Origin: Bdellovibrionales bacterium
GTDB lineage: Bacteria; Bdellovibrionota; Bdellovibrionia; Bdellovibrionales; UBA1609
DNA: 53,250 nucleotides
Assembly: GCA_031412575.1 (NCBI GenBank)
Contig: JANODG010000003.1
Coordinates: 1-53,250 of the forward strand
Direction of reading: 5' to 3'
Of the stretch, positions 8,622-48,719 are shown one piece after another. Each line of letters opens with the position of its first letter. Within the stretch, counting starts at the first letter, position 1. Under the pieces are notes generated by a model, which saw nothing but the letters and a program-made list of their open reading frames with translations, was not told the origin of the DNA and did not search any database. Both the position numbers and the translations under genes were made by a program.

Positions 8622-9191
8622 TCATAAAAACTTTTGTTCTACAATATATCTCCAAGGCAATAGCGCATCTTCTTCCGCGTAACCAATCCCGATTCTTGGG
8701 GTTGCAGTGTAATTTAATTTTCGTCCATGGTCTTCAAACCAGATGTACTGACTTTCATAAAGTTTATCCCCATTATGATTTACTTTTATTCCCAAGGCCT
8801 GACTTAATTTCCCAGGTCCCGAGGCCAGATCCTGAGATCCTTTTCGTCTTGAGCTTTGGATCTTTAATCCTTCATAAGGTAATACGGCACGGACTAAAAC
8901 AGCCTGTGGCCAATCTTTGGGGCCAGTGATGATATTGAATAAGTGGTGTATCCCGTAACATAGATAAATGTAAGCAAGTCCACCTTCTTCATAAAAAATC
9001 TCAGTTCGCGGAGTTCTTTTTTCCTTGTAGGCATGACAAGCTTTATCTTTAAACCCGCAATAAGCTTCTGTCTCGATAATGATTCCAGATGTATATTGCC
9101 CATCGAAGTTCGTGACTAAGGTTTTACCTAACAGCTTTTGGGCGACTTCATTGACATCTGGATTTTCGAAAAAATGTTTATCAAGTCTCAT
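8622..9191 (-). CDS. mpg: 3-methyladenine (alkylpurine) DNA glycosylase, AAG/Mpg family
   Basis: VAQKLLGKTLV, IIETEAYCG, HAYKEKRTPRTEIFY, GLAYIYLCYGIHHLFNI, VLVRAV and GPGKLSQALGI match the Mpg family along the full length. Confidence 0.9.
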   Translation of the reverse strand: MRLDKHFFENPDVNEVAQKLLGKTLVTNFDGQYTSGIIIETEAYCGFKDKACHAYKEKRTPRTEIFYEEGGLAYIYLCYGIHHLFNIITGPKDWPQAVLVRAVLPYEGLKIQSSRRKGSQDLASGPGKLSQALGIKVNHNGDKLYESQYIWFEDHGRKLNYTATPRIGIGYAEEDALLPWRYIVEQKFL

Positions 9192-9219
9192 GTAAATTTA
9201 GCGCTTTTCCAAAAGAATA

Positions 9220-11876: not shown

Positions 11877-11969
11877 AAGCAGTAACCCTTCATAGGTTTA
11901 ATTTTTTAAGCGTTTTAAATGAGTAAACTCATCTTTTTTTCGCCAACTATATTCCCTTGATTATTCAAG

Positions 11970-12782
11970 CTACCTGGCTTTATTAATTTTCAAACTTTTT
12001 TCAAGAAGTTCAGTGATATTGATCACATTACTTTTTGGAGTTTCGATAGTTTCTGATTTTTTAGATTTAGAGGTCTTCTTTGAAGATTTCTTTCGGCTTA
12101 AACTCTTTACGTATTTTTTCAAAGCCACTTTGTATTCGTCTTTGAACTCTTCGGGACTCCAAGCACTAGACAAAGAATCCACTAAATCACTGGCAAGCTT
12201 TTGTTCCTTAGTCGAGATCCTTACAGCTTTTACATCTTTGATAAATTCAAATTCAGATAAATCTTTTAAGTCTGGTTTAAATCTCAACAGATTTAAAATA
12301 AGTGCATTTCCCTCTGCAATGATAGCCCCTAAGTGTTCACGGGTCTTTATTGTGACTTTACCTAACGCCGCCTTTTTTTTAGATTCCAAAGTTTTGTATA
12401 ATAAGGAATAGCTTTTTTCGGCTTTTTTGCCAGGAGCTAATACATAAGGCTTATCAAAGTAGTAATAGGGAATTTCCTCGACATCAACAAACTCCGTCAA
12501 TTCTATAGTTTGTGTGGACTTAAGTTGAATACCTTTTAAAGTTTCTTTATCGAGTGTGAGATAAACATCTTCCGAAATTTTATAACCCTTTGTGATATTC
12601 TTCCAAGGCACTTCTTTGCCTGTGTCTGCATTAATCTTTTTATACTGAATTCTTGCCTGGTCGCGACCATCAATCATATTAAGATCAATATTATCTTTTG
12701 TGTTTTGCATTGATAATAATTCAATAGGTATATTAATCAAACCAAAACTTATATTGCCATCCCATATTGCTCTTGCCATCAA
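11970..12782 (-). CDS. ku: Non-homologous end-joining protein Ku
   Basis: N-terminus MARAIWDGNISFGLINIPIELLS and a Lys-rich C-terminal tail (KKSSKKTSKSKK) are typical of bacterial Ku. The gene is adjacent to ligD. Confidence 0.9.
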   Translation of the reverse strand: MMARAIWDGNISFGLINIPIELLSMQNTKDNIDLNMIDGRDQARIQYKKINADTGKEVPWKNITKGYKISEDVYLTLDKETLKGIQLKSTQTIELTEFVDVEEIPYYYFDKPYVLAPGKKAEKSYSLLYKTLESKKKAALGKVTIKTREHLGAIIAEGNALILNLLRFKPDLKDLSEFEFIKDVKAVRISTKEQKLASDLVDSLSSAWSPEEFKDEYKVALKKYVKSLSRKKSSKKTSKSKKSETIETPKSNVINITELLEKSLKINKAR

Positions 12783-21041: not shown

Positions 21042-21578
21042 TTGAATCATTCTAATATGAAGATTTGGTTGTCACTTTCATTTATTTTTTCTATCTGTCA
21101 GCCTTACGTTCAAGCAAATAGCTTTAAACACAATTTAATTAATAAAAAAATGGGAGGCCTTATGGGCGCTATTAGCCCTGTAACCACTGGAACTCTTCAC
21201 AACATCGAGGTTAAAAACATTAATAACGAGCTTATTGGTGAAATTATCATCCAGGGCACGTTTTCTAACCGTGAAGATAACTCTCCCATAAAGCCAAGCG
21301 AATTGCTTGAATATCCACAAAGGCGCGTGATTTCTGAACTGATCTCAGTCTCAGCTTCGGTTCAATTTAAATTCAAAGTGGTAAATATTAAAGCCGAAAT
21401 TATAGCCTCAAAGGATGAGCAAAAGGCATTGAATAGCGTCGCTAACGAGCTGGATAAAAACAAAGGCCTAAAAATATCAAAATCCGAGACTATCGTGCCT
21501 GGTAATCCAGAATTTAAAGCTGCTCTCGTGAAACATTTAAAATCGCAATATAACCTAGCAGCAGAATTCCTGCGATAA
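21042..21578 (+). CDS. Hypothetical secreted protein
   Basis: The ORF opens at TTG 21042. ATG 21057 (MKIWLSLSFIFSICQPYVQA) gives a cleaner signal peptide. No recognisable domain. Confidence 0.45.
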   Translation: MNHSNMKIWLSLSFIFSICQPYVQANSFKHNLINKKMGGLMGAISPVTTGTLHNIEVKNINNELIGEIIIQGTFSNREDNSPIKPSELLEYPQRRVISELISVSASVQFKFKVVNIKAEIIASKDEQKALNSVANELDKNKGLKISKSETIVPGNPEFKAALVKHLKSQYNLAAEFLR

Positions 21579-21767
21579 GGACTTGGTTTCACATGAAATG
21601 CGGCTTTTTAAAACGGACTGAAATGCAAAAAAGCTGACCAAATAAAACCCATCTCGGTAATTTATTCATGAAATCAAAGCGCACTTAGTGAAACTTAAAG
21701 TCCTGGACTATTATGGTTTCTAAGAAATCGGTTAATTTGAATAGAATTTAACTCTAGGAGTAACTTT

Positions 21768-22670
21768 TTGAATATAAAAGACTTTGTAACATTTGGACTA
21801 GTTTTAATTACGAGCGTTTACGCGGTCGGGGCTACTTGTAATACAAAGAAAATTTCTGAACGTGAGATTCTTATTGAGATGGGTGAAAAGAAAATTTTGG
21901 TTTTGGGTTGGAGACACGTTGATCCATCGGGATCTACCCAGGACGATATCCTATCATTATTCAATCAAGCCAATGCCGTTAAAACGTGCGGAGAGTTTTC
22001 AAAGATTATGGAAAATGCTCTAAAGATTTACTCTTCAAATTATGCAGAAGGTGCACGAGTTTTAAAAACCTTAGATCAATTCAATTCATTATACGGGATT
22101 GATTTTATCGGTGACGAACAAGATCCTGAGGATTCGAGATTACAAGCGCAGGCTTTAAAAACCTATGATTCGATCTTTGATATCAGATTGAAATTTTGTC
22201 CCTTATCCGAGCTTGTAAGTCGTGTTCGACTTATTCTACCTGGTCCACGTATGGTCTTTTTGCAACAAAATCCCAAAGTTCAATTGATTGGTTTAGAGGA
22301 TGCTGCACTTAAACAAAAAGCTTCTGATATTATGAGTCAGGAAATGCCCTCCATAGATTTTGCAAAGCTATCGCCGGAAATTTTAGACCTTCTATCAAAT
22401 ATTCAGAACGATATCGTCTCCAATACGATCATTCAAGATTCTAAAATCGAAACTGTTTACAAATTAGCACTCAAAGATGCTCCGGACGCCGCTGAAGATA
22501 TTCTATTTTCTCTTAAACAATACCAAGAATTTATCCAAACTTCTTTTGATCGAAGTATTGCAATGGCAAATAACGCCGCTGCACTTCAGGGAAATGTAGC
22601 TATTGTTGTAGGCGAAGCCCACTCCGGTCAAATCGCTGAGCAAATCTTAAAATCTTGTTTGAAAAATTAA
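21768..22670 (+). CDS. Exported Tiki/TraB/PrgY/GumN-superfamily-like protein (possible lipoprotein)
   Basis: TTG start. The signal peptide ends in VYAVGATC. An N-terminal GxxH-type motif (ILVLGWRHVDPSGS) is paired with a C-terminal DRSIAMANN...VAIVVGEAHSGQIAEQIL, resembling the ERDxxMA...VvGaGHxxG signature of TraB/Tiki enzymes. Confidence 0.5.
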   Translation: MNIKDFVTFGLVLITSVYAVGATCNTKKISEREILIEMGEKKILVLGWRHVDPSGSTQDDILSLFNQANAVKTCGEFSKIMENALKIYSSNYAEGARVLKTLDQFNSLYGIDFIGDEQDPEDSRLQAQALKTYDSIFDIRLKFCPLSELVSRVRLILPGPRMVFLQQNPKVQLIGLEDAALKQKASDIMSQEMPSIDFAKLSPEILDLLSNIQNDIVSNTIIQDSKIETVYKLALKDAPDAAEDILFSLKQYQEFIQTSFDRSIAMANNAAALQGNVAIVVGEAHSGQIAEQILKSCLKN

Positions 22671-22937
22671 TCGAAAAATACAAAAAAAAGCTAGTTGCTT
22701 TTGCCATTTCACTTTGATTATTCGAACTGTCTCATTCTAAGACTAAATCCCAACTTTTTAAAATATCCAATTAAAATTTATTTGTTCGTAACACTTTGGC
22801 CGCTTTTTGATTTTTTGATACCTTTATGTATCAAATTGAATCAGAAATTTACGGTATTCTTTAGGTGACAGTTTTTTGCACCGATCAATTTACATAACGC
22901 AGATAAGTTAATTTGCTTGCAGTAATTTGGAAGTTTT

Positions 22938-23777
22938 ATGTTTAGAGTCCAGCAATTAAAACTGATGAAGCTTTTAATGGTACCTCTTGGGATATCCTTT
23001 TTACTTTTTAGTTTTCAAAACTGTATGCCAGGTTTTCAAAGTGGAGATTTAGCTTTAAGCGTTCCTCTTCCCTCAAATAGCGAAGTACAAACCAAAGCCT
23101 TAGGTATTTTAAGAACCAACTGCCAAACTTGCCATATCAATCAAAGTTTAGGCGGGATTTCTAATATAGCAAACGCCACTCATTTATTATCCACTGGTTT
23201 AATCATTCCAGGAAATATAAATTCCCCACTTATGCGTTCGATTAATGATAACAGTATGCCTCCGTCTGGACCCTTAACAGAAGCTGATAAAATTGATTTA
23301 AGAAACTGGATTTTAGCTTTAGCAGGACAAGGGCCCATCCAAGAACAAATAGATTTAAGTTTTAATTTCAACGTCTCATTTGACCCTTTAATTTTCCCAA
23401 ATCGTTTAAATAAGCTGAACTACGTTATTGGATCCAACCCTGGAACCAGCTTAAACGCTTTGATAAGTAACCGATTTTTATTAGGTGATTATAATTTTTC
23501 TACCAACGTGATTCCAAATTACTCTTGGGGCGCGACCGAAATGCTGAACTGGTCCGAAAACTTACAGTCATTTTGTTCTTCTCCAAATTTTTTAAATCAA
23601 TTCGCTTGGATAACAGCCGCTGAAGTTTTGATGGAACGCGCTTATGGAAGGATGCCTGACAGCCAGGACATGTCTATTTTTAATGAGATCAACACGATTA
23701 ATAATATTAATGATCAAGAGAGAATTCAAATTTTATGTTTAACTCTTTTAACATCCATGGAGTTCATAACAAAATGA
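22938..23777 (+). CDS. Lipoprotein with a planctomycete-type cytochrome c domain plus a DUF1595-like segment; N-terminal half of a split DUF1592-family protein
   Basis: The signal ends in LLFSFQNC. There is a heme c motif CQTCH, with a downstream MPP (DNSMPPSGPLTEADKIDLRNWI). LMERAYGRMPDSQDM...ERIQILCLTLLTSMEFI resembles RAFRRP...ILASPxFLY of the unsplit paralogue at 34831. Confidence 0.65.
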   Translation: MFRVQQLKLMKLLMVPLGISFLLFSFQNCMPGFQSGDLALSVPLPSNSEVQTKALGILRTNCQTCHINQSLGGISNIANATHLLSTGLIIPGNINSPLMRSINDNSMPPSGPLTEADKIDLRNWILALAGQGPIQEQIDLSFNFNVSFDPLIFPNRLNKLNYVIGSNPGTSLNALISNRFLLGDYNFSTNVIPNYSWGATEMLNWSENLQSFCSSPNFLNQFAWITAAEVLMERAYGRMPDSQDMSIFNEINTINNINDQERIQILCLTLLTSMEFITK

Positions 23778-24859
23778 TCAAGCTCATTATTATTTTCTCT
23801 TTTACTTTGTGCTGTCACTTGAACCTTAATCAAGCTTTAGCGCAAACAACGACTCCTCAGCAAGCTTTAAGCTACATGTCTTATTTAAGCTCTAAATTGA
23901 TTAATCGTCCTTTAACTTCGCAAGAATCTTCTTTAATTAGATCGCAAGGTGAAAGAGCTTTTGCGCAAATCATTGATGGCTGGTCCAACGATTCAAGATT
24001 TCATCAAAGCGCAAAACAATTTGTTGAACTTTTACTAGCAACTAACGGATCTTCAAACGGAATTAATTTTGATATTCCTGGGTATCTGGGATTGGACATC
24101 GCGCGAAGAAAGCGACCATACACCGATTTAATCACAGCATCTTCATGCGTAAATGCTCAAGGCGATACTACAGCCTGCGATACAGGGGCCCCGTTTAATG
24201 CAGGTGTCTTAACAACACGAGCGTTTTTAAGAAAAGCTCAAGGGGCTTATAACATTGGTCGCGCTGGGCGAATGATGAGTGAATTTTTATGCACTACCTA
24301 TCCCTTACCCGAAACTCTTGAACCCAGACTTCGCGCACAAGATATGGTTCCTGAATTTGCGACAATGTCAGGAGCAATCACTTTTGGAAATGGAAATAAT
24401 TGTTACAGCTGCCACTCTCAGTTTGGACAGCACACTCAGTTTTTTGTTAAATTTGATTTGGATGGAACCTATAGAGCAGGTGCTACAGGTTTACAAAGTC
24501 CCGGAGCCACCGATGGCTATTCTCAGAATAATCTTTTGGTTTCACACTTGAATGATCCAGTAAGAGCAAGAGACGAAAGTAGCCAAATCCTAGGTCAAAG
24601 AGCCGCAAATTTACAAGAAGCCTCGAGAGTCATTGCGAATAGCACTTTGTTTTTACCCTGTGCTGTAAAACATTTAATGCGTCATTATTTAAAATTAAGC
24701 GATCAAAATATGGCTAGCATTAAACCCGATCTATTTAGAACAATTGCTGAAGAGGCTAAAGTTTTAAATCAAAATCCAAGTTTTTCCCATTTAATCCAAG
24801 CCATTGTAACTAACAAAAGCGTTTTTGAGTCTTTCAAAAAAACAGGAGCTTTACCATGA
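23774..24859 (+). CDS. Exported DUF1592/DUF1588/DUF1585-like protein with CxxCH; C-terminal half of the split family member
   Basis: ATG 23774 overlaps the upstream TGA (ATGA). It has its own signal peptide MIKLIIIFSFTLCCHLNLNQALA. GVLTTRAFL...GRAGRMMSEFLC and NNCYSCHSQFGQHTQFFVKFDLDGTY are collinear with RGGLITHASFL...SRGSWILNNVLC and [24 protein letters not shown] of the 34831 protein. Confidence 0.65.
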   Translation: MIKLIIIFSFTLCCHLNLNQALAQTTTPQQALSYMSYLSSKLINRPLTSQESSLIRSQGERAFAQIIDGWSNDSRFHQSAKQFVELLLATNGSSNGINFDIPGYLGLDIARRKRPYTDLITASSCVNAQGDTTACDTGAPFNAGVLTTRAFLRKAQGAYNIGRAGRMMSEFLCTTYPLPETLEPRLRAQDMVPEFATMSGAITFGNGNNCYSCHSQFGQHTQFFVKFDLDGTYRAGATGLQSPGATDGYSQNNLLVSHLNDPVRARDESSQILGQRAANLQEASRVIANSTLFLPCAVKHLMRHYLKLSDQNMASIKPDLFRTIAEEAKVLNQNPSFSHLIQAIVTNKSVFESFKKTGALP

Positions 24860-26403
24860 AATTACCTGATTTAGAAAATATGCCTCCTTTGGAGCGTCGG
24901 GAATTCTTAAAAAAATTAAGCGCCACACTTGCGACTTCGCCTTTGTTTTCAAACGCAATTAAAGTAACTTTGCTCGATATGCTTTTGGGATCTTCTGCTT
25001 CAGCACAAGTGAACAGTCCGATGAATTTTTTAGAGGTTAATTTTCGTGACCAGTGGGATTTCGGTTCTGTTTTTGTAGCTCCAAGTTTAGCTCGTAATTA
25101 TGAAAATATTCGTAATCAAACATCAATTTTCGAAATGCCAACTGCTGAAAGAAATAATTTTTACTTATCTCCTAGGGCTTCAGAACTTAGGCCTCACTTA
25201 GATCACATTGCCGTCATTGAAACTGGCGAGTGTGTTTTACCAGGAAACTCATCAGTGCACGGGCATGAGGCTGGTAACCCATTACGTTCACCGGGGCGCA
25301 CACAAACTTCTGGTGGTGGGAAAATTGATATGGCCACTGTAGATCGAAGACCCGGAGGAAGAGCTGCGGGGAATGAAGTTTTATACAGTTCGACTCCAAC
25401 TCCTGCAATTTTACACAACTACTATTCAAAAATGCAAAATCCCAACTTGCGAAATGGAACTTTACTTCGAAGTTCAATCAGACCAGACGTACACACGTAC
25501 TATCATTTCGAAGCAAATTTAGCGAATGCTCAATTGACAAGGTATTTTAGTAAAAGCACTTTTTTAAGTGCCTTTCAAAACGTAGGTGGTGTTCCAACTA
25601 GGCCGCCTGTAATAAAGCGCCACGGTAATGTCATTACAAGTATGCTTAAGAAATTAGATCAGCGTTTTATGCAAAGATCTTTGGCTGACACCAATCAAAG
25701 AAATAAACAAAATTTAAGTGTTGATGAATTTGCGAGGTTACTAAATGCCCAACCTGAAGTGATTCAGGTGGATTTAACGGCTGCGGAGTTGGCCGCGTGG
25801 CAAAATAATATTGGACCACAGCTTAATTGCGCCGGTGATGAAGCCTCAAACTGCACTCCAGCCCAAGGTGCATGGGGTGCTGGGGAAATCTTTGCCCACG
25901 CTTTTAAACTCTTCAGATCCGGAACCGTAAGAACAGTTGCTATCGACTTTGACATGACAGATGTACATTCTAATAGAACGCCGCTTTTGATGAACACGCA
26001 AGCTGAGCAAAGCGGAAGAACTTTAGCGCGAATGATTCAAAATTTAAAAGACAGTGGACTTTGGGAAAACACAATTATTGCAATGTACACTTTAGATGGA
26101 AGTCGTTCTCCGGTTTCGAATTCGACTGGTGAAAATACTAAAAACGCAATTGTTCTTGCCGGTGGAAAAATCAGAGGTGGCTATTACGGAGATGTTAGTC
26201 TTTCAACGAATGGCACTGTCACTTACTTTAGACCTAACGATTCTGGCCAACCTATAGCTCAAGGAAATACAGGTCGTGACATGAGAGTTCCTGCTGCTGA
26301 CATTTATAAAACGGTGGCTTCACTTTCGGGTGTTCCAATGAACATGATCGACAGCTTCGCAGATGTGCGCGCTGGGCGCATGTTAAGTTATTTAATACGT
26401 TAG
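24856..26403 (+). CDS. Twin-arginine-exported DUF1552-like protein
   Basis: ATG 24856 overlaps the upstream TGA (ATGA), with AGGAG 7 nt upstream. TAT motif ERREFLKKLSATLA. It is collinear with, but divergent from, the DUF1552 protein at 36523 (AVIETGE...VHGHEAG versus IVSGLQ...AGHHADA, and a C-terminal LAGGKIRGGYYGD versus VAGRGGGFKTGQHH). Confidence 0.6.
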   Translation: MKLPDLENMPPLERREFLKKLSATLATSPLFSNAIKVTLLDMLLGSSASAQVNSPMNFLEVNFRDQWDFGSVFVAPSLARNYENIRNQTSIFEMPTAERNNFYLSPRASELRPHLDHIAVIETGECVLPGNSSVHGHEAGNPLRSPGRTQTSGGGKIDMATVDRRPGGRAAGNEVLYSSTPTPAILHNYYSKMQNPNLRNGTLLRSSIRPDVHTYYHFEANLANAQLTRYFSKSTFLSAFQNVGGVPTRPPVIKRHGNVITSMLKKLDQRFMQRSLADTNQRNKQNLSVDEFARLLNAQPEVIQVDLTAAELAAWQNNIGPQLNCAGDEASNCTPAQGAWGAGEIFAHAFKLFRSGTVRTVAIDFDMTDVHSNRTPLLMNTQAEQSGRTLARMIQNLKDSGLWENTIIAMYTLDGSRSPVSNSTGENTKNAIVLAGGKIRGGYYGDVSLSTNGTVTYFRPNDSGQPIAQGNTGRDMRVPAADIYKTVASLSGVPMNMIDSFADVRAGRMLSYLIR

Positions 26404-26465
26404 GACTTGGAGCGTGATGTCTAGCGTCCTTATTTTCATATAAGATTATCAAAGGGTGTTCTTAT

Positions 26466-27218
26466 ATGAATAATTTCGATTTCAACTCAATTATCGACTT
26501 AGATAAAAATCAAATCGATTTTTATTTTAGCACTAGATTAAAAAACTCTTACGACCAAAAACAAGTTGAATTTATTAGACCATCCGCTGAAGAAATTATT
26601 CAGGCCGTACCTATGGAAACTTTATTTATTCCCTGGAAAGATTTATCGGATGGATTAAGACTAAGCAAATTAAATGATTATCAACCAAGAGTTGTTCAAG
26701 TTCAGCAACGCCGGGCAACTTGGTCTACTCGTCTCAAAAAAGACAATTACAAATCAATTATTGATCAACTGTTTCATTTTATTGAACGAAATCTTGCTGA
26801 CATTTACCGATACAAATTTTTGGAAGAATCTAATCCAAGCTTAGACATGCAAGCTTGCACTGCTTTACTCCAAAGACTTTTTCTGAATCAAGAGCCATTT
26901 CGGTTAATGCCTAAAATCAATCTTCCTGACCAAAAGATTTGCCTTGAAGTGTTTAACAAATACTTTCCTGAGCCTGAGTTTAAGGTTTCATATTACAGTA
27001 ATGAATTTTTAATTCAAAAAAGTGTAGGGGGCTTTCAATTCCTTGAAATTGGAGAACGTGGGGGAATAGAAAAGCAGTTTGAATCTGAAGATCTTCAAGA
27101 AGTGCAATTTGTAGCTTTTAAGAATATGAGTTCGATTGATTATGTGGTTGAAGATCGACAATTTGTTTTTGATTATAATCAGATTTATCATTTGAAGGAG
27201 TTTAGGGAAAAGGATTAG
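26466..27218 (+). CDS. Hypothetical cytoplasmic protein
   Basis: 250-aa ORF with no signal peptide and no motif I recognise. It is the last gene of the plus-strand island. Confidence 0.45.
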   Translation: MNNFDFNSIIDLDKNQIDFYFSTRLKNSYDQKQVEFIRPSAEEIIQAVPMETLFIPWKDLSDGLRLSKLNDYQPRVVQVQQRRATWSTRLKKDNYKSIIDQLFHFIERNLADIYRYKFLEESNPSLDMQACTALLQRLFLNQEPFRLMPKINLPDQKICLEVFNKYFPEPEFKVSYYSNEFLIQKSVGGFQFLEIGERGGIEKQFESEDLQEVQFVAFKNMSSIDYVVEDRQFVFDYNQIYHLKEFREKD

Positions 27219-27227
27219 TGGGTGGGG

Positions 27228-27419
27228 ACACTGTCTAGTTCACTCGTGCGCTTTGCTGTCTAGCACACTCGTGTGCACTTTGGGCGGCTACCGTTCAGTC
27301 CGCTTCGCTGGGACTTCCGTTCGCACGCCCAAGCACACTCGCTGGTGCTTTTCCTCCTGCGGAGGGCGCGCTGGAACTTTTCTTGCTGCGCAAGGCGGAA
27401 CTTTTCCCACTGCGTGGGG
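27228..27419. repeat. GC-rich repeat element, copy A (intergenic, immediately 3' of the ftsI stop)
   Basis: Modules in order: CTGTCTAGTTCACTCGTGCGC (27231-27251), CTGTCTAGCACACTCGTGTGCA (27256-27277), GGGCGGCT, CACTCGCTGG, then three CTTTTC-hairpin units. It stands out sharply against AT-rich flanks. The same module order recurs at 29632-29740. Confidence 0.85.
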
Positions 27420-29330
27420 CTATTCCAGCTGCACTAGAACTTTGGATTTGGAGTGAAGGTTTTCGCCCTCTTGGAAGATGACTTTTGAGACTAAGCCTTG
27501 GCCGTGAAATTTGACTTCGACAGGTTTGTTTTTAAGAATTCGTAAAACTTCACGGACTGTTAATCCATGTAAAGAGTCTGTTGTTGATTTTGCGAGAGGC
27601 GTATATTTACAGTCTTTGTTTTTACAGTCTAATAATTCAGACGGCATAATGTTCGTCGGAATTATGTTTTCTTTGTTCATTAAAAATTGGGCGACCTTTG
27701 AAAACACAGGCGCTGCTGCCTCTGATCCATAGTAATTTTTTTCGGGCTCATCAATTCCTATATAAATAATAAATTTTGGTTTTTCTGCGGGAATCATTCC
27801 TACAAAAGAACTTAAATATTTATCTTGGTGATATCCACCTTTTTCTAAATTCACTTTATTTGCAGTTCCAGTTTTTCCGGCAACTAAGTAGCCCTCGACT
27901 GACGCATTAAATCCTGTGCCCCCGTCTTGAGTCACTTCGGTCAACATGGCTTTTAAAGTTTGCGCAGTTTCTTTAGTCATCACTCGCCGTTGAACTTTTT
28001 CAACTTCTAAATCCATTCCTGAAGCGGCAACTACACTTTCCACCAAGTAAGGCTGTTTCCACATGCCATCACTGGCAATCGCAAGATAAGCTGACGCTAC
28101 TTGAATGGGTGTCGCCGTAAAGCCATGTCCAAAAGATGCTGAAGCCAACATGTGGCTTGGCCATCTTTGCTTACGATATATTCCTTTGGATTCCCCCGGA
28201 AAATCTACTTTGGTTTTTTCCCCAAATCCAAGTTGGTTATAAAACGCACGAGTTTTTTGCTCGCCCACGTTCAAAGCCATTTGAGTTAAAACGACGTTCG
28301 ATGAAACTTTTAATCCTTCGGTTAACGTCATCGTCTGGCACTTAATTTTTTTTGCATCGGAAATAACTCTTCGACCTAATTTAATTTTACCATCAAGGCA
28401 CGCAAATTCACTTCCTGGTCTAAAAACTTTATTTTCTAAAGCGGCGCCAACAGCAAAAGTCTTTATCGTGCTTCCTTGCTCTTGAGCTTCTGTAAAAACT
28501 AAATTCTTTTTAAAAATACCTTTATCATAAATAGCTCGATTTAAATCATAGGTCGGCCACTGTGCCGAAGCCCGCACAGCCCCAGTTTCAACGTCTAAAA
28601 TCAACCCATAGGCAGACTTCGCTTCATGATCTTCCATGGCGCGCTTTAATTGAATTTCCAAAAAACGTTGGTATTCAGAATCTATAGTTAAAAATAAATC
28701 CTGACCCTCTGGAGGCTTATTATATTGTTCGGGGTCCATAAACAGTGGACGACCTTTAGCGTCTCTGGAAACAATAAGTTCCATGTCTTTTCCGGCTAGG
28801 AAATTATTGTACTGATACTCTAGACCCTCTAAGCCTCGCCCATCGGTGCCGACAAACCCAATTACTGAAGATAAAATATCGCGGCCTGGATACTGACGAT
28901 TAGGTTCACTGACAAAATGAATTCCGCTGAAGTTTGCGTTTTCTATTTCTTTTTTTAATTGCGGAGAGATCTTCCGCTTTAACCAAACGAATCTAGATTT
29001 TCTTCGCATCTTATATTCTAATGTTTTCGGATGCGCTTTTAATAGTCTTGCAATTCGACTTGCCGCAAGCCTTGGGTTTTTGATGTTCTGCGGATCTGCA
29101 AAAACAGAATACGTGGGTTCGTTAATGGCGAGTTCTTTGTTCTTTCGATCGTAGATGCGACCTCTGCGTGCTTGAACTTTAACGGTTTTAAAAAACTGGA
29201 TCTTTTTGTATTCGTCTAATCTTTTGTGAGGCAAAATTTGTATATTTGCCCCTTGGCCTAGGATCATGCAAAATATCACAAGCTTGAGTAGAAAAAAAAG
29301 ATGTATGAAATGCTTGATCCTCATACTCAT
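27420..29330 (-). CDS. ftsI: Peptidoglycan D,D-transpeptidase FtsI (class B PBP)
   Basis: N-terminal TM helix plus SxxK (STIK), SxN (SSN) and KTG (AGKTGTA) motifs. dcw position after ftsL. Confidence 0.93.
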   Translation of the reverse strand: MSMRIKHFIHLFFLLKLVIFCMILGQGANIQILPHKRLDEYKKIQFFKTVKVQARRGRIYDRKNKELAINEPTYSVFADPQNIKNPRLAASRIARLLKAHPKTLEYKMRRKSRFVWLKRKISPQLKKEIENANFSGIHFVSEPNRQYPGRDILSSVIGFVGTDGRGLEGLEYQYNNFLAGKDMELIVSRDAKGRPLFMDPEQYNKPPEGQDLFLTIDSEYQRFLEIQLKRAMEDHEAKSAYGLILDVETGAVRASAQWPTYDLNRAIYDKGIFKKNLVFTEAQEQGSTIKTFAVGAALENKVFRPGSEFACLDGKIKLGRRVISDAKKIKCQTMTLTEGLKVSSNVVLTQMALNVGEQKTRAFYNQLGFGEKTKVDFPGESKGIYRKQRWPSHMLASASFGHGFTATPIQVASAYLAIASDGMWKQPYLVESVVAASGMDLEVEKVQRRVMTKETAQTLKAMLTEVTQDGGTGFNASVEGYLVAGKTGTANKVNLEKGGYHQDKYLSSFVGMIPAEKPKFIIYIGIDEPEKNYYGSEAAAPVFSKVAQFLMNKENIIPTNIMPSELLDCKNKDCKYTPLAKSTTDSLHGLTVREVLRILKNKPVEVKFHGQGLVSKVIFQEGENLHSKSKVLVQLE

Positions 29331-29341
29331 AATCGTACACC

Positions 29342-29764
29342 TTATTGTTTGACCATAAAAGATGTAGAGCCAATGTTAATCACTTTACCGACCTGATATC
29401 CTTTAATAGAATATCTGTTCAAAGCTAGACCCGAAATTTCGCGATCTGAAACTTTCTTAGAATAATCGGTATAAAGCGTCCTAAATTCGTCATCATGAAT
29501 TTTAAATTCAGACGATAATTTGTAGATCTCATAAGACTTCCGCTTTAACTCCATTCGAGTAAATAAAACGGACATCATGGAAATTAAAAAAATAAATAAA
29601 GAGAGGAAGAATTTGATGCCGAGTTTATTGTGATCACTGTCTAGTTCACTCGTGCGCATTTTACTTTGATCGCTGTCTAGTTCACTCGTGCGCATTTCGG
29701 GCGGCTTCGCGCGCCCGCGCACTCGCTGGAACTTTTCTTCATTTGTATTTATTTCGTTTTTCAT
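29342..29764 (-). CDS. ftsL: Cell division protein FtsL with a repeat-encoded cytoplasmic tail
   Basis: Small bitopic protein (TM helix FFLSLFIFLISMMSVLF followed by a coiled-coil-like region) between rsmH and ftsI. The ORF opens at TTG 29782. ATG at 29762-29764 has AAGGAG 6 nt upstream, so I prefer it. Confidence 0.75.
   Translation of the reverse strand: MKNEINTNEEKFQRVRGRAKPPEMRTSELDSDQSKMRTSELDSDHNKLGIKFFLSLFIFLISMMSVLFTRMELKRKSYEIYKLSSEFKIHDDEFRTLYTDYSKKVSDREISGLALNRYSIKGYQVGKVINIGSTSFMVKQ
29632..29740. repeat. GC-rich repeat element, copy B (inside the ftsL 5' coding region)
   Basis: CTGTCTAGTTCACTCGTGCGCA at 29637-29658 and again at 29673-29694 (36-bp period), then GGGCGGCT, CACTCGCTGG and AACTTTTCTT. 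Order and orientation match copy A. Confidence 0.85.
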
Positions 29765-30659
29765 TTTTGACTCCTTTTTCAAAAACTCGAAGTTGGGCGC
29801 TTCGTGATCGGATATTACTTTCGACTTCTGATCTTTGAGGCTTTATGACTTTTTTTGTGACCGGAAATCCGATTTGTGAGTTCTTAAAAATATATTTCAC
29901 AATTCGGTCCTCCAGCGAGTGAAAAGTTATCACGAGCAAACGACCATCTTCATTTAAAAATTCCATAATTTCTGGTAGTGATTTTTTTAAGCCTTGGATT
30001 TCATTATTCACAGCCATTCTTAAGGCTAAAAAATATCTGGTGGCAGGATGTGAACCTTTTATTCTCCAACCCTCTTTGACTTCAATTAAGTTTGATAACT
30101 GCAATGTAGTTTTGAAGGGTTGAATCCCGCGTTGTGATATAATTTCTTTCGTCACGCGGTAAGGATTATAGACTTCGCCTAATTCTTTAAAAATTTCATT
30201 TAACTGATCTTCGTCATATTCGTTGATGATATTTTCTGCCGACAACACTTGTGACTGATTCATTCGCATGTCTAATGGACCATCTTTATAAAAACTAAAT
30301 CCACGGTCTTGATCATCTAGCTGGGGTGAACTCACGCCTAGATCCATCATGATCAAATCAAATTTTTGTTTAACATGATTTTTATCTGCAAAAGATTTCC
30401 AATCGTGAAAACTTGAGTGAATAAACTGACTTCGTTCGGATAGACCCAGATCATAAAATTTACTTTGAGTGTCTTTGATCGCTTGAATGTCTTGATCAAC
30501 GCCGAAACAAAATAAATTTTTATATTTATTCATGAAGGCCATCGCATGACCGCCTCGGCCTAAGGTCAGATCTAAATAAGTTTGTGGTTCTGCCTTTAAA
30601 CCTTGAGCTTGTTCTAAACACTCTTCTAATAAAACTGGGATATGTAAGTAACTCATCAC
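29739..30659 (-). CDS. rsmH: 16S rRNA (cytosine1402-N4)-methyltransferase
   Basis: HIPVLLEECLE, DLTLGRGGH, MDLGVSSPQLD and FHSLEDRIVK motifs. Confidence 0.95.
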   Translation of the reverse strand: MMSYLHIPVLLEECLEQAQGLKAEPQTYLDLTLGRGGHAMAFMNKYKNLFCFGVDQDIQAIKDTQSKFYDLGLSERSQFIHSSFHDWKSFADKNHVKQKFDLIMMDLGVSSPQLDDQDRGFSFYKDGPLDMRMNQSQVLSAENIINEYDEDQLNEIFKELGEVYNPYRVTKEIISQRGIQPFKTTLQLSNLIEVKEGWRIKGSHPATRYFLALRMAVNNEIQGLKKSLPEIMEFLNEDGRLLVITFHSLEDRIVKYIFKNSQIGFPVTKKVIKPQRSEVESNIRSRSAQLRVFEKGVKNEKRNKYK

Positions 30660-31114
30660 TTATCCCCTTTTTGTTGAAACTGACTGACGGTTTTTAAAAT
30701 ATCATCGTAGTTGACTGCAATGTCGGAAAAGATTTTTTGCCACGCGCTCTCATTCCATAGTTCAATTTTATGTCCCATACCAATGGCCACAATTTGTGTT
30801 TCAAGTCCCGCGAATTCACGAAGCAAGGTCGGGATTAGAATACGGTCCTGACCATCTTTTTCTAAATTTTGTGCACTTGAAATGTAGAATCTTTGGAACG
30901 CTTGAACATGCGTGTCAAAAACAGGAAGCTTAGACGTCTTTGATTCCAAAGCTTTCCATTCTTTTAAACTATATAGATCTAAGCACTTTTCACCTTTATA
31001 AAGCGAGTTAGTTATGACAAATTCAGCCCCAAGCCCGCCTTGAATGAAGACCGAAGGAAGTCGAATTCTTCCTTTTTGGTCCATTTTCAGATGATGACGT
31101 CCTTGAAAAACCAC
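30656..31114 (-). CDS. mraZ: Transcriptional regulator MraZ
   Basis: Two SpoVT/AbrB-like halves (DQKGRIRLPS and DGQDRILIPT). The longest ORF starts at TTG 31150. GTG at 31112-31114 gives MVFQGRHHLKMDQKGRIRLP, the usual MraZ N-terminus and length (about 152 aa), and it leaves the upstream repeats non-coding. Confidence 0.88.
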   Translation of the reverse strand: MVFQGRHHLKMDQKGRIRLPSVFIQGGLGAEFVITNSLYKGEKCLDLYSLKEWKALESKTSKLPVFDTHVQAFQRFYISSAQNLEKDGQDRILIPTLLREFAGLETQIVAIGMGHKIELWNESAWQKIFSDIAVNYDDILKTVSQFQQKGDK

Positions 31115-31150
31115 AAATCCCTCTTTATTGCCTATAAATTTTAATTTCAA

Positions 31151-31176
31151 CCACTTTTAACCACTTATTTCCACTT
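31151..31176 (-). promoter_or_regulatory. Three direct AAGTGG repeats at a 10-bp period: candidate MraZ operator
   Basis: Plus-strand CCACTT at 31151-31156, 31161-31166 and 31171-31176, about 40-60 nt upstream of the preferred mraZ start. MraZ proteins are known to bind arrays of short GTGG/TGGG-type direct repeats spaced about one helical turn apart upstream of mraZ. Confidence 0.5.
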
Positions 31177-31294
31177 CGGACAACAAGACCGTAAAATTAA
31201 GCATCAACATACAAAACTTTTAAGATCTATGCTTTTCTTAAAAAAAACAGACCTAAGTGTACCCATCCAAAGGCTAGCTTGTTACAGTTTCTAC

Positions 31295-31912
31295 ATGTCG
31301 ACATCGTCAGGACCCTTATACAAAGCCCCTTTTGGATCTATTACCGTGATTACGGGGTGTATGTTCAGTGGAAAAACGGAAGAGCTTATCAAGCGTATAA
31401 AGCGGCATCTGCTTCAAAAACATAGCTATCAAATTTTTAAACCCACCCTAGACACACGCTATGGATTTAGTGACCTTGTAGTTTCACATAACCAACAAAA
31501 ACTTCCCGCCATCAGCATTGATGATCCTAAAGAAATTCTGGTTCAATTAAAAAAGTCTGTGAATGTTGTAGGTATCGATGAAGCTCAGTTTTTTTCAGAA
31601 GACGTTATTTCTGTGATGAATGAACTGACTGAAAATGGAATTGATGTTGTAGCTTCAGGTTTAGATACTGACTGGCAAGGTCGCCCCTTTCATCCAATGC
31701 CCTTGATACTAGCTAATGCTGATTATATTCATAAACTTTATGCCGTTTGCTCGGTCTGCGGCAGTGACGCTACTCGAACACAAAGATTAGTCTCTTCGAA
31801 TAAAACTGTTTTGGTCGGAGCTGGTGAGGTGTATCAAGCCCGATGCCGCACACACTTTGATCCTTTCCAAAAAGATAAAAAAGATTTAATTTTAAAGCCA
31901 GTAGTTATATAG
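31295..31912 (+). CDS. tdk: Thymidine kinase
   Basis: P-loop GCMFSGKTEE, IDEAQFF, and zinc-ribbon cysteines CSVCGSDATRTQR...ARCRTH. The ORF opens at 31229, but ATG 31295 (MSTSSGPLYKAPFGSITVITG) gives the standard N-terminus. Confidence 0.9.
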   Translation: MSTSSGPLYKAPFGSITVITGCMFSGKTEELIKRIKRHLLQKHSYQIFKPTLDTRYGFSDLVVSHNQQKLPAISIDDPKEILVQLKKSVNVVGIDEAQFFSEDVISVMNELTENGIDVVASGLDTDWQGRPFHPMPLILANADYIHKLYAVCSVCGSDATRTQRLVSSNKTVLVGAGEVYQARCRTHFDPFQKDKKDLILKPVVI

Positions 31913-34830: not shown

Positions 34831-36519
34831 ATGAAAAACTTGTTTTTTATTAAAAAGAAAACTCTAAAGTCGATGTTTAGTTTAACTCTAATCACATTGA
34901 CGATTCTTTTGTATAATAATTGCGACAGCGGTTTTAATGCAAGCAATGAGTTCTTTAGCGGAAATTCAAACTTCGTATCACAGTGTGAGTCTGGTGCTCC
35001 GCAGGCCAAGATGCAGCTCCACCGTTTAACCAACCAAGAATATATTTACACCATCAAAGATCTTTTCAACGTCGACTTATTAGCATCGAATTTTCCTACA
35101 GCTGATCAAGCCGGAGGAAGTGGCTTTACGAATGAGTACTCACGCATGAACAGAGATACTAATCTTTCTGAAAATGTGACTAACGCTTATTTTGAACTTG
35201 CTATAACAACGGCATCTAGAATCATGACTCAAAATCCAAGTTCGGTTTTAGGTTTAAGTTGCAATACACGATCTGACGCCTGCTACGAGGATTTTTTAAG
35301 AAAATTGAGTCTTAAAGTTTTCAGAAGACCTTTAGTTGAACCTTCAGAAATGACTGCATTTAAAACAATTTTTTCTGCTTACACCAATTTTTCAGAGCCC
35401 GCAGAAGTGGTCTTAGCGACAATGCTAGCTTCACCAAACTACTTATATAAGTCTTATGGTGCGTACTCTGCCCCCGTAAATCAATCTTCTGGCAGAAAAG
35501 TTATATTGAACAATTATGAGCTTGCAACAAGATTGTCTTACCTTCTTTGGGCGTCGGCACCGGATGATGTTTTATTAACAACGGACCTAAGCATATCTGC
35601 AAATTTAGAATCGCAAATCAAACGACTTCTAGCGAGTCCAAAAGCCAGACGTTTATCTTCTGTTTTTGCTGACCAGTGGTTGGATTATTCAAAAGTTGAA
35701 ACCAGTTCTGTTCCAACAGAATTTGCCGTTTCTGCAGCGGTGTTGCAAAGTTCGAAACGTGAAACTGAAGAATTTTTAAATTACGTCATCACGCAAAGTT
35801 CCCGTGCCTTGGATTTATGGGACGCCGATTATTCATTTTTAAATGCAAGTCTTGCAACTCATTACGGAATTTCGGGTGTGACTGGAACCACAATAAATAG
35901 AGTTCCCATTTCAAACTCTAGCAACGGATCTAACCGTGGCGGCTTAATCACTCATGCAAGTTTTTTAATTAACACTTCAGGCGGGACTTTAGAAACTCAT
36001 CCCGTTAGTAGAGGTTCATGGATTTTAAATAACGTACTTTGCGATTCTGTTCCACCACCACCACCGGGCGTAACAGCACTGCCTGATGCAAGTTTAGCAA
36101 GTAGCCCTAGAGAACTTGCAGAACTTCACGCCAGTCAAGTTAGCTGTAAAGCCTGTCACGCACGCATGGACCCCTTGGGTTTTGGTTTAGAGAATTACGA
36201 TGCGAGCGGAAAGTGGATCACAAGTTATAATTTAGGAAAGTGGGCTGGTCGCGGCATTGCCGTAGAAGCTGATGGAATTTTAGATGGGGAAAGATTCAAT
36301 GGCCCAGGAGAACTTAAAAAATTAGTGGCCGAAAATCCCGAAACCAGCATTTGCATGTCACGAAAAATTGTAAGTTATGCTTTAGGCCGCAATATGAATT
36401 CTAAAGACCACTGTCTTTCGGAAGATGTGGGTCTAAATGTAATTTCTAAGGGTGGGTCTTTTGAAGCCGCTTTAAAAAAAATCATTAACAGTCCTTCGTT
36501 TAAAGAAAATGGCAGGTAA
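34831..36519 (+). CDS. Lipoprotein of the DUF1587/DUF1595/DUF1592/DUF1588/DUF1585 multi-domain family
   Basis: The signal ends in LLYNNC. Motifs: HRLTNQEYIYTIKDLF (DUF1587-like), KVFRRPL...MLASPNYLYK (DUF1595/1592), RLSYLLWASAPDD, RGGLITHASFL...SRGSWILNNVLC..PPPPPG (DUF1588), CKACHARMDPLGFGLENYDASGKW (DUF1585). Confidence 0.8.
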   Translation: MKNLFFIKKKTLKSMFSLTLITLTILLYNNCDSGFNASNEFFSGNSNFVSQCESGAPQAKMQLHRLTNQEYIYTIKDLFNVDLLASNFPTADQAGGSGFTNEYSRMNRDTNLSENVTNAYFELAITTASRIMTQNPSSVLGLSCNTRSDACYEDFLRKLSLKVFRRPLVEPSEMTAFKTIFSAYTNFSEPAEVVLATMLASPNYLYKSYGAYSAPVNQSSGRKVILNNYELATRLSYLLWASAPDDVLLTTDLSISANLESQIKRLLASPKARRLSSVFADQWLDYSKVETSSVPTEFAVSAAVLQSSKRETEEFLNYVITQSSRALDLWDADYSFLNASLATHYGISGVTGTTINRVPISNSSNGSNRGGLITHASFLINTSGGTLETHPVSRGSWILNNVLCDSVPPPPPGVTALPDASLASSPRELAELHASQVSCKACHARMDPLGFGLENYDASGKWITSYNLGKWAGRGIAVEADGILDGERFNGPGELKKLVAENPETSICMSRKIVSYALGRNMNSKDHCLSEDVGLNVISKGGSFEAALKKIINSPSFKENGR

Positions 36520-36522
36520 TTT

Positions 36523-38025
36523 ATGAGCAAAAAAAATAACAATAAGTCTTTTAATCGTCGCCAATTTCTTGAAGGTAGTTTCTATGGGATGACTTTAAAA
36601 TTAATGCTGCCCACAATGGTGAGCTTAATTCCTAAAGATTTAAGATCACAAATGGTTCCCAATGCCATGAATTTATTTGTGATGTATTTACCAGATGGCA
36701 CATACCCTCACTCAATCAACCCTAATGGAACTTTAAGATGGGATCGAACCATGTCTAGATGGTATCCCGCGGTTGGTGCTTTACCAACAGTTCTGCCAAC
36801 AATGTTGAATAAATTAAATGGCATGCAAAGTGACTTTTCGATTGTCAGTGGTCTTCAAAATTCGGCAGGTACAACCTGTGCGGGTCATCACGCTGATGCC
36901 ATCGCAAGATATTTAACGGGCAACAGCTTTCAAAACAATTGGTGTACTGATCTTTATTCTGTAAATGACAGTATAGATCAAATCATTGGTAAACATCTTT
37001 CTGGCAGAACTGATGCCTCCTCTATCCAAAAATTTATTTTAAGTGCGAAAATGCGAAATGTCGGTGGAGCAGATATGGGCACTGGCGCTAACCGTGAATG
37101 GGGCCATAACTTATCTTATTTAAATAATAAACCAGCTTACAGTTATACAAATCCAGGACAAATGTTCACGGACACTTTTGGATTACCAACAGACCCACAA
37201 ATTACCGCCGCCTTAAAAAAGCGTAAAAGTGCATTGGACTTTTTACTTCCAGACATTCAAGCCAAACGAGCTTTAGCTTCTGCTGAAGACCGAATTATTT
37301 TAGATCGTTGGTTAACTAATTACGAGGAATTGCAAAGAACTTTAGAGACCACAGGCACAGGCCCTGTATGCACAAGACCAACTGCTCCAGCGGCGACTTT
37401 AGATGCGGCCGCAAATCGAGGACAAGACTACAATGCCATAGTTAGAGCTTATATGGATATAATGCTGGCTTCCATGGAATGTGGAATTAGAAAAGTTGGT
37501 ATTTTACAAATGCAATCGGAAGCTGCCGACATTAACAATTTTTATAATCAAATTGTAGCCACTGAAGATCTTCATTCGGAAGTTGGTCGTACTACTCGAA
37601 TCACCGACATGGCCACAAGTCAGCACATTGGTATGGCCCATTACGGCAGTGATGGCGCCGATATGATCAATTATTTAAAGCTTGTCACATTAAATAATTA
37701 CTATTTAAGACAATACCGTTATTTTGTACAAGGATTAAAAACCCGTGGTCTGTTTAATAATTCGATTGCAACCTATGGTTACGGATTTAAAGATGGGAAT
37801 CACACCAGTGCTCCAGCGGACATGCCATTTTTAGTCGCCGGCAGAGGCGGCGGATTTAAAACAGGTCAGCATCATAGGTTAACGACACTTCGTCCCGAGC
37901 AGACCGGTTATAATTTGTCAGCAATGACTCCACTTCCTAATTTTTGGGCTTCAGTTTTAGGTAAATACGGGATCACTTACAGCCACGCTAATACGAGCGG
38001 AAACACCAATCAACTTTTCGATTAA
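36523..38025 (+). CDS. TAT-signal DUF1552-family protein
   Basis: Starts 3 nt after the upstream stop. Twin-arginine motif NRRQFLEG. SIVSGLQN...CAGHHADAIARYLTGN and C-terminal DGNHTSAPADMPFLVAGRGGGFKTGQHH are typical of DUF1552, the usual partner of DUF1592-family proteins. Confidence 0.8.
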   Translation: MSKKNNNKSFNRRQFLEGSFYGMTLKLMLPTMVSLIPKDLRSQMVPNAMNLFVMYLPDGTYPHSINPNGTLRWDRTMSRWYPAVGALPTVLPTMLNKLNGMQSDFSIVSGLQNSAGTTCAGHHADAIARYLTGNSFQNNWCTDLYSVNDSIDQIIGKHLSGRTDASSIQKFILSAKMRNVGGADMGTGANREWGHNLSYLNNKPAYSYTNPGQMFTDTFGLPTDPQITAALKKRKSALDFLLPDIQAKRALASAEDRIILDRWLTNYEELQRTLETTGTGPVCTRPTAPAATLDAAANRGQDYNAIVRAYMDIMLASMECGIRKVGILQMQSEAADINNFYNQIVATEDLHSEVGRTTRITDMATSQHIGMAHYGSDGADMINYLKLVTLNNYYLRQYRYFVQGLKTRGLFNNSIATYGYGFKDGNHTSAPADMPFLVAGRGGGFKTGQHHRLTTLRPEQTGYNLSAMTPLPNFWASVLGKYGITYSHANTSGNTNQLFD

Positions 38026-48053: not shown

Positions 48054-48134
48054 GCTATCAGTGTACGTCAGTGATTTTACTGTAGCAACTAACTCAAGTG
48101 AAATTGATTCAAGCTCCCTAGAACTTTTTATTTA

Positions 48135-48665: not shown

Positions 48666-48719
48666 GTGAGCTACCCCCATAAAGATTAAGACATTACAAT
48701 TCTATGATGGGATTCGGGG

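Follow-up and report, generated by a model that had tools for sequence, protein, structure and literature searches.

What are the two short GC-rich blocks that flank ftsI in the division and cell-wall (dcw) gene cluster of a Bdellovibrionales bacterium, and how did one of them come to lie inside the coding region of ftsL? The blocks, named here copy A (behind ftsI) and copy B (within ftsL), were found in a stretch of 53,250 nucleotides of contig JANODG010000003.1 (assembly GCA_031412575.1). The whole stretch is referred to as the window, and its features are placed in Table 1. Structural analysis of the repeat and comparison with related genomes indicate that both blocks are probably insertions of a small, non-autonomous, hairpin-forming repeat element, similar to repetitive extragenic palindromic (REP) sequences and miniature inverted-repeat transposable elements (MITEs), and that this element represents a new family.

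Two blocks of repeated sequence in the same orientation, GC-rich and 2.4 kb apart, had been described in an earlier note made from the letters of the window, and both motif matches and a composition scan bore this out. A GC content of at least 62% in 60-nt windows was reached only in the two blocks across the whole 53 kb (peaks of 0.67 and 0.68), with an overall GC content of 36.5%. The 21-mer CTGTCTAGTTCACTCGTGCGC occurs exactly at 27231, 29637 and 29673 and with three mismatches at 27256, all on the plus strand, where 0 matches were expected from 100 shuffles. CACTCGCTGGAACTTTTC is exact at 29720 and recurs with two to three mismatches at 27336 and 27365, while GGGCGGCT is found window-wide only at 27282 and 29699. 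The longest exact stretch common to both copies is 23 nt, with a further stretch of 16 nt. The two copies share one orientation because both lie behind minus-strand genes of one operon.

The repeat unit is a long imperfect hairpin

Read on the strand of the upstream gene, which is the minus strand of the window, the basic unit is approximately 65 nt long. On this sense strand the 5' half consists of AAGAAAAG-AGTTC-CA-GC-GA-GTGCGC followed by an apical GC-rich hairpin, and the 3' half, after the apex, of GCGCAC-GA-GT-GAACT-AGACAG. The unit folds as one long imperfect hairpin in which a two-nucleotide CA bulge and a tandem G-A internal loop are fixed and the apex varies. Pairing between the arms AGTTCCAGCGAGTGCGC and GCGCACGAGTGAACT is interrupted only at the bulge and the G-A loop, and the ends AAGAAAAG and AGACAG form unpaired tails. 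What had been taken for a modular element is therefore better described in other terms: the modules do recur, but they are the two arms and the apex of a single hairpin. Similarly, the doubled first module is present in both blocks, but it has different origins, arising from a nested element in copy A and from a 36-nt tandem duplication in copy B.

The fold is supported by covariation. In a model-fitted alignment of 13 units, standard pairs filled 94.1% of pair cells, compared with 26-48% when the partners were slid by one to three columns. Changes on both sides were present in 7 of 20 pairs, and none of 500 shuffles matched the observed pairing values. The outer stem AGTTC/GAACT is replaced by AGCAC/GTGCT in the inner unit of copy A, and the inner stem occurs as GTGCGC/GCGCAC, GTGTGC/GCACAC, GCTGAC/GTCAGC, CCCCAC/GTGGG or CTGT/ACAG. 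While the stems vary in this way, the unpaired parts (tails, CA bulge and tandem G-A loop) are invariant. Fold stability exceeded that of shuffled sequences (z -1.9 to -3.8) and, when folded as DNA, the sense strand performed slightly better than its complement.

The apex often reads GCGAAGC, and the sense-strand loops are GCA and GAA triloops closed by C-G. Triloops of this kind, tandem C-GA-G mismatches and GCGAAGC are classic motifs of unusually stable single-stranded DNA, and such triloops and mismatches are not typical of RNA loops. Arrays additionally contain accessory hairpins with short stems, each followed by AAAAGTTCC. All eight accessory hairpins with 4-5-bp stems carry a GCA loop, and their stems (CCCAC, CTTGC, CCTCC, CCACC and CCTGC) are different yet complementary. 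Arrays have grown in three modes, by addition of 5-bp GCA-loop hairpins with AAAAGTTCC, by nesting and by tandem duplication.

Copy A is built from three accessory hairpins and one unit nested in the apex of another. Within the inner unit, the outer stem AGCAC/GTGCT and the inner stem GTGTGC/GCACAC are both compensated relative to the consensus, and the apex holds an extra nested hairpin, AGTCC-CA-GCGAAGC-GGACT. GAACGG lies on each side of this hairpin and on both sides of the sub-module described below, which gives a hint of self-insertion. Tandem Repeats Finder (TRF) reported a period of 29 across 27340-27397, and on the ftsI strand stop codons interrupt copy A in all frames.

An apex sub-module, G-T-S-C-CAGCGAAGC-G-S-A-C-TGAACGG, was observed nested in some units (window 27290-27330; L004 1060-1100; L010 6895-6925; L numbers denote loci in other assemblies), and its stem covaries as GTCC/GGAC or GTGC/GCAC. 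A k-turn reading of the G-A loop was dropped, as the covarying outer stem of copy A would break a k-turn. Readings of the unit as a clustered regularly interspaced short palindromic repeat (CRISPR) or as a selenocysteine insertion sequence (SECIS) were also rejected. Rfam 15 contained no family for the region, with two sub-threshold chance matches within 26000-31500, neither of them inside the copies.

The element is present or absent at orthologous sites in related genomes

Comparison with related genomes, a check named in the earlier note, showed that presence of the element differs at orthologous sites. The syntenic contig of a sister lineage (L015; FtsI 93.4% amino acid identity) has the same gene order and is without both copies, with just a 54-nt AT-rich spacer at the position of copy A. 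In the more distant metagenome-assembled genome (MAG) GFS_9291 (81%), the ftsL site is occupied and the copy downstream of ftsI is absent. Given that L015 is empty and GFS_9291 filled, the ftsL site received either two insertions or a single one that later disappeared cleanly in one lineage. In MAG MFD03250 the element is found elsewhere, but FtsL (P0014), encoded on the same 986,402-nt contig, carries no insert.

GFS_9291, a Bdellovibrionales MAG with assembly accession GCA_043764155.1, and MFD03250, a Pseudobdellovibrionaceae MAG (bin MFD03250.bin.2.22), were identified through an exact-pattern scan with CTGTCTAGNNCACTCGTG across one genome per species, which matched four contigs of the former and one of the latter. 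Further scattered single matches in unrelated GC-rich genomes look like chance. Outside the window, the unit occupies seven loci in three to four related assemblies, or eight when the orthologous ftsL site is counted. The loci read after the scan have the ends of the unit in common, whereas its middle varies. A covariance model built from seven simple units was then searched against approximately 180 kb of sequence, in which relatives were sampled only around the exact matches and one contig of the window genome was read. The model recovered 14 distinct units, including an extra copy in L016, the ftsL locus of GFS_9291, and one in L022, the ENA scaffold BUSI22-1_2468; no additional unit was recovered from the window or from six related loci. 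Some units stand alone, and others form direct tandems, with three units in L010 and four in L001. In L014 two inverted units enclose an ordinary terminator, and in L002 a unit lies head-to-head with a partial one.

The suggestion of a dispersed family resembling REP sequences and bacterial interspersed mosaic elements (BIMEs) thus holds in substance. Further loci exist, mostly intergenic at the 3' ends of genes, and share a covarying hairpin, but orientation does not alternate and no REP-associated tyrosine transposase (RAYT) gene flanks the units. Public data seem to contain few members of the family. Within the reach of the searches, it is previously undescribed and restricted to a narrow group of uncultured Bdellovibrionales, and full-text literature searches found no repeat family described for this bacterial group.

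Two further palindromic or arm-like sites were noted. A match to the 5' arm with two mismatches, AAAAGTTCTAGGGAG at 48114-48128 on the minus strand, is not accompanied by any other module and was set aside as probably due to chance; it lies a few nucleotides past the stop codon of an OmpA-family gene (48135-48680). In L016, the anti-oriented unit at 393-438 sits at the centre of a large AT-rich inverted repeat (L016 300-500) with arms of approximately 45 nt. This inverted repeat could represent either a bidirectional terminator or another palindromic element, distinct from the unit.

The copy in ftsL preserves the reading frame

The FtsL reading frame continues through the ftsL copy. The genes ftsL and rsmH overlap at the end of rsmH, so that copy B, which starts directly after the rsmH stop codon TGA (29739-29741), begins eight codons into ftsL. 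As a result, approximately 35 element-encoded residues are added to the N-terminal tail of FtsL before the membrane helix. In an alignment of 22 FtsL homologues, 20 have the short tail M-K-N-E-I-N-T-N-x-x-x-K-L-G before this helix, and the element-derived stretch is confined to the window and GFS_9291 (P0002, L016). In both, frame 0 is the only one of the three frames to be open through the element, and this FtsL frame links the conserved start codon with the remainder of the protein. The start codon and ribosome-binding site are the same as in the 20 insert-free homologues. The duplication in the window ftsL, at 36 nt a multiple of three, encodes a second MRTSELDSDxxK, and the product called on the public contig is the same 140-aa FtsL.

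The 5' arm of the element is read in different frames in the two genomes, giving EKFQRV in the window and WKSSSE in L016, which shows remodelling at the DNA level under a constraint to keep the frame open. In both ftsL copies an ATG is located just 5' of the 3' arm, where other copies have AAG or AGC. In the window, the upstream ATG lies at 29764 and the ATGs inside the element at 29695 and 29659. A second, internal start of ftsL is therefore possible. The element would have landed behind the rsmH stop codon and would have been kept in ftsL as a tolerated addition to the cytoplasmic tail of FtsL.

Unrelated AT-rich inserts in the FtsL N-terminus are found at the same position after the rsmH stop in L017 (2863-3000) and L018 (10001-10130). 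These were considered as decayed elements and rejected, showing no convincing similarity to the element. Their existence indicates that this spot in the FtsL tail tolerates insertions in general.

Units abut stop codons and mostly follow the upstream gene

Of the 11 arrays, nine run in the direction of the gene upstream, and in eight of the nine the array starts 0-5 nt past the stop codon of that gene. The distance from stop codon to element is 0-1 nt for copy B, L001, L002 and L022 (TGA or TAA, then A(A)GAAAAGTTCC), 1-5 nt for copy A, the ftsL copy of L016, L014b and L010, and 15 nt for L014a. The opposite orientation was seen in two copies, L004 and L016 393-438. All arrays but one are intergenic (10/11). 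The 5' flanks (TGA, TGA, TAA, TAA, CAAA and others) end in A but share no fixed tetranucleotide. The abutment to stop codons could reflect a genuine site preference, a short target with A as its last base, or strong selection where spacers are short.

On the sense strand, AGACAG follows the hairpin and there is no U-tract; a scan for promoter and terminator consensus sequences was negative in both copies. On the antisense strand, TTTTCTT follows the closing stem. As TTTTCTT is present only on this side, the unit would resemble a terminator only for antisense or convergent transcription, and the strand facing the convergent open reading frame (ORF) at 26466-27218 carries the copy A hairpin plus a T-tract. 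Selection would keep only those insertions that neither terminate nor disrupt sense transcription, and the orientation bias may have arisen because insertions in the opposite orientation were mostly removed inside operons. As incidental effects of the element, the upstream mRNA could gain a hairpin at its 3' end, and the hairpin together with TTTTCTT could block antisense or convergent transcription in the manner of a terminator. A role in stabilizing or terminating 3' ends would be plausible.

A candidate enzyme for mobilization

Presence and absence at orthologous sites, nesting, tandem growth, the lack of target duplication in ten flanks and covarying stems with invariant unpaired bases together suggest a non-autonomous element that is mobilized as a folded single strand. 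The element would spread in this form by means of an enzyme that recognizes its structure, for which a Y1 HUH transposase of the IS200/RAYT type is the most plausible candidate. An enzyme of the HUH Y1 type is favoured by the stable single-stranded DNA motifs and the better DNA fold of the sense strand.

The window itself encodes a RAYT-like protein with a Y1_Tnp-like domain (Table 1), which has weak matches to the TnpA proteins of IS608 and ISDra2 and relatives labelled RayT by JGI. The gene is located within the division and cell-wall cluster between ddl/GNAT and ftsQ. It occupies the same ddl-ftsQ place in the closest relatives, with 81% identity (L024/L025), and this conserved position indicates that it behaves like a domesticated single-copy gene. 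More than 397 homologues were found, and those with a source name or organism are Bdellovibrio-type. In L021, L024 and L025 the RAYT-like gene likewise has AT-rich flanks and no unit beside it. The unit in L022 is separated from the gene by 1.3 kb and two other genes and so does not flank it. No link between the RAYT-like gene and the element could be established, since the four other loci into which the gene was followed show conserved synteny and leader with no adjacent unit. Not all RAYT groups are associated with repeats (PMC5581495), and the Y1 protein of the window is therefore a candidate only.

A more far-reaching proposal is that the units form a new class of single-strand hairpin mobile element inserting at the 3' edge of stop codons, with the rsmH-stop/ftsL site hit independently in the window and GFS_9291 lineages (closer relatives being empty) and movement possibly provided by the domesticated, position-conserved Y1 protein of the division and cell-wall cluster. 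As a whole this proposal is speculative and considered unlikely.

Approximately 100 nt upstream of the RAYT-like gene, long 7-nt tandem arrays, (ACTCACG)n and (ACTCATA)n, extend as far as the contig end in L021 (1-107) and L022 (1-258). A conserved leader, AATTTTATTTAACACnAAG, lies between the 7-nt array and the RAYT-like gene and is also present in the window at about 3316-3336.

Weighing the mobile repeat against other explanations

Several observations weigh against the insertion of a mobile repeat family. Movement is deduced solely from presence and absence. No target-site duplication was found in 10 right-hand flanks, and the single TGA...TGA case, at ftsL in comparison with the empty L015 site, may be coincidence. 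The Y1 gene of the window is not linked to the element, as its AT-rich flanks lack units and none lies within 24 kb, and the Y1 family has a much wider distribution than the element. Metagenomes scanned for a gapped two-arm pattern and for a 19-mer gave 0 matches, as did viral scans. A set of 5.8 billion proteins searched with all six reading frames of the unit yielded nothing. Public data therefore contain essentially no ORFs, spurious or real, that run through the element, with FtsL of GFS_9291 as the exception. The 53 kb window has just two arrays. The orientation bias is statistically weak (9/11, one-sided binomial about 0.03) and weaker still when the two ftsL copies are counted once.

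The same bias, with eight arrays starting 0-5 nt past a stop codon, would be expected of a functional cis-acting motif in 3' untranslated RNA, a binding or processing signal recruited repeatedly behind stops for the upstream mRNA rather than selfish DNA. This explanation would also account for the invariant tails, bulge and G-A loop beside covarying stems, and for conservation of the unit across genomes approximately 25% apart in housekeeping genes at the nucleotide level. It is nevertheless regarded as unlikely. Rfam holds no match, and the tandem and nested arrays, the head-to-head partial pair and the two anti-oriented copies are arrangements of mobile repeats. Furthermore, sister genomes lack the element at the same genes, one copy is within a coding region, and the triloops and C-GA-G mismatches are typical of single-stranded DNA. 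A likeness to integron attC sites, or to remnants of cassettes recombined as single strands by an integrase, is seen in the imperfect arms, fixed extrahelical bases, central unpaired region, variable terminal structure and position after stop codons. The attC consensus is RYYYAAC...GTTRRRY, whereas the unit reads GTT...AAC on both strands, so that the core sites do not fit. In addition, no integrase was detected by Pfam among 48 scanned ORFs of at least 110 aa, tandem units have no ORF between them and the flanking genes are core housekeeping genes in conserved order, making an integron origin highly improbable.

The motifs are confined, within the window, to two places that lie 2.4 kb from each other and share one orientation, and the repeat is translated in ftsL, which could indicate a one-off local event in which copy A is a duplicated, decayed 5' fragment of ftsL (or the reverse) and RTSELDS is a genuine protein repeat of FtsL. 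Such a one-off duplication, which the earlier note had kept as an alternative, can hardly be sustained: it is already refuted by units at seven other loci in related assemblies, in unrelated intergenic positions and both orientations. Of the 22 FtsL homologues, 20 lack the repeat, the sister lineage included; copy A has stops in all frames on the ftsI strand, and the frame of the 5' arm differs between the window and L016. The earlier note had also raised the possibility that the direct repeats support duplication or deletion of ftsI-ftsL by recombination, and exact stretches of 23 and 16 nt are indeed shared. The longest exact match, 23 nt, is close to the minimum length for RecA-dependent exchange. 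A single ftsL and a single ftsI are present in each of the four related dcw loci that were examined, deletion would be lethal through loss of two essential division genes, and two independent insertions, each behind a different gene of the same operon, are sufficient to explain the layout. A role as substrates for copy-number variation is accordingly very unlikely, and insertion of a mobile repeat is retained as the probable origin of both blocks.

Comparison with known repeat elements

REP sequences, their hairpin-forming doublets (REPINs) with the associated RAYTs, and BIMEs resemble the unit in being short GC-rich imperfect palindromes, mainly extragenic and at gene 3' ends, that form single-strand hairpins and assemble as mosaic modules. 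A Y1 HUH transposase is presumed for REP/REPIN sequences, as proposed here for the unit. The replicating unit of a REPIN is a doublet of two inverted REPs, and REPIN flanks can carry A/T runs suggestive of attenuation (PMC3337134). In contrast, the present unit is a single hairpin of approximately 65 nt whose arms have no palindromic core of their own, it has no flanking RAYT and it abuts stop codons tightly. REP sequences reach tens to hundreds of copies in a genome; the one contig read from the window genome holds two arrays. Mosaic structure is shared with BIMEs, but the modules of an array have one orientation here and do not alternate.

Correia elements (NEMIS) of Neisseria and other MITEs are similarly small and non-autonomous, have inverted-repeat ends, are cotranscribed with neighbouring genes and form long hairpins; the arms of the unit provide the terminal inverted repeats typical of MITEs. 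MITEs mobilized by DDE transposases leave target-site duplications (TA for Correia), whereas none was seen in the 10 flanks here. Elements derived from IS200/IS605 have a strand-specific hairpin, no target duplication and a short target, which is compatible with the strand-specific GNA loops and G-A mismatches of the unit. They differ in having distinct left-end and right-end hairpins and a defined target of 4-5 nt, while the 5' flanks here share only a final A.

The ftsL copy is reminiscent of Rickettsia palindromic elements (RPEs), which are palindromic, about 100-150 nt long and sometimes in frame in coding genes. As with the ftsL copy, these palindromes of an AT-rich genome are translated within coding genes. 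RPEs belong to another taxon, and only 1 of 11 sites is coding here, the ftsL site being coding because a stop-proximal insertion fell into the overlapping downstream gene. No sequence relationship between the unit and RPEs is known to us. The GC clusters of yeast mitochondria, which are found alone, in tandem or in nested form and are occasionally located in frame in genes, offer no more than an analogy from a eukaryotic organelle. These too are GC-rich palindromic mobile islands in AT-rich DNA, with no sequence or mechanistic link to the unit. By analogy with these systems, the element would work like REP/REPIN, Correia-type or IS200-derived hairpin repeats and, in ftsL, like RPEs.

Features and gene neighbourhood of the window

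The calls of ftsI, rsmH, mraZ and an FtsL homologue agree with those of the earlier note (Table 1).

Table 1. Positions of the repeat copies, their parts and the relevant genes in the window
Feature	Position	Strand	Remarks
Copy A, composite array	27228-27419	-	Occupies the whole 200-nt gap from the ftsI stop (27420-27422) to the stop of the convergent ORF; RNA fold z = -2.9
Copy A, inner unit	27256-27356	-	Covariance model 60.2 bits, E 3e-13; DNA fold z = -3.8
Copy A, outer unit, 5' arm AAAAGTTCCAGCGCG	27367-27381	-	In the fold, paired with the 3' arm of the outer unit
Copy A, outer unit, 3' arm CGAGTGAACTAGACAG	27231-27246	-	Motif match and fold
Accessory hairpin CCTCC-GCA-GGAGG (sense strand)	27353-27365	-	
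Accessory hairpin CTTGC-GCA-GCAAG	27382-27394	-	Followed by AAAAGTTCC on the sense strand
Accessory hairpin CCCAC-GCA-GTGGG	27406-27418	-	Starts 1 nt past the ftsI stop codon
Copy B, one complete unit	29673-29740	-	Covariance model 95.8 bits, E 9e-23; within ftsL codons about 9-31
Copy B, 36-nt in-frame tandem duplication (3' arm plus 15 nt of flank)	29637-29672	-	TRF period 36, 2.1 copies, 92% matches
ftsI (PBP3-type transpeptidase)	27420-29330	-	Pfam PBP_dimer 2e-21, Transpeptidase 3e-70; bracketed by copies A and B
ftsL (140 aa)	29342-29764	-	FtsL homologue between rsmH and ftsI; relative in JGI named FtsL
rsmH (mraW)	29739-30659	-	Pfam Methyltransf_5 2e-86; stop codon abuts the 5' end of copy B
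mraZ	30656-31150	-	
Convergent ORF (250 aa, without family match)	26466-27218	+	Stop 27216-27218, 12 nt from the end of the copy A 3' arm
Y1_Tnp-like, RAYT-like gene (181 aa)	2723-3268	-	Pfam Y1_Tnp 23.4 bits; HUH motif is HLH; Tyr in AYFQANR

A 249-aa homologue of the convergent ORF is encoded in L015. The junction between ftsI and murE is a variable spot in these genomes (window 21042-27218; L015 12310-14207; L016 12423-15794; L017 5290-5346), and copy A lies at one edge of the variable segment. In the window, six plus-strand ORFs are inserted at this junction, including a DUF1588/DUF1501 pair. Unrelated inserted genes are also present in L015 (two ORFs) and L016 (four ORFs), and in L017 murE directly follows ftsI. 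Elsewhere in the dcw cluster, the interval from murG to ftsW contains a DNA-repair block (8622-12782) comprising a methylpurine glycosylase, Ku and a split LigD, in which the ligase is joined to the primase-polymerase and the phosphoesterase is separate. Planctomycete-type genes occur as two separate pairs, DUF1585-1595/DUF1552 at 34831-38025 and DUF1588/DUF1501 at 23735-26403.

Significance

For annotation, these results are a warning that GC-rich islands in these AT-rich genomes are repeats, and not genes or foreign DNA. The element adds a well-structured repeat family to a bacterial group in which none had been described in the literature searched. Abutment to stop codons, together with strand-specific hairpin motifs of the DNA type, offers a handle on the choice of site and on the enzyme that moves the element. 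The FtsL N-terminal tail is marked as a general insertion hot spot, and ftsL, an essential division gene, tolerates a repeat-derived extension of 35 residues.

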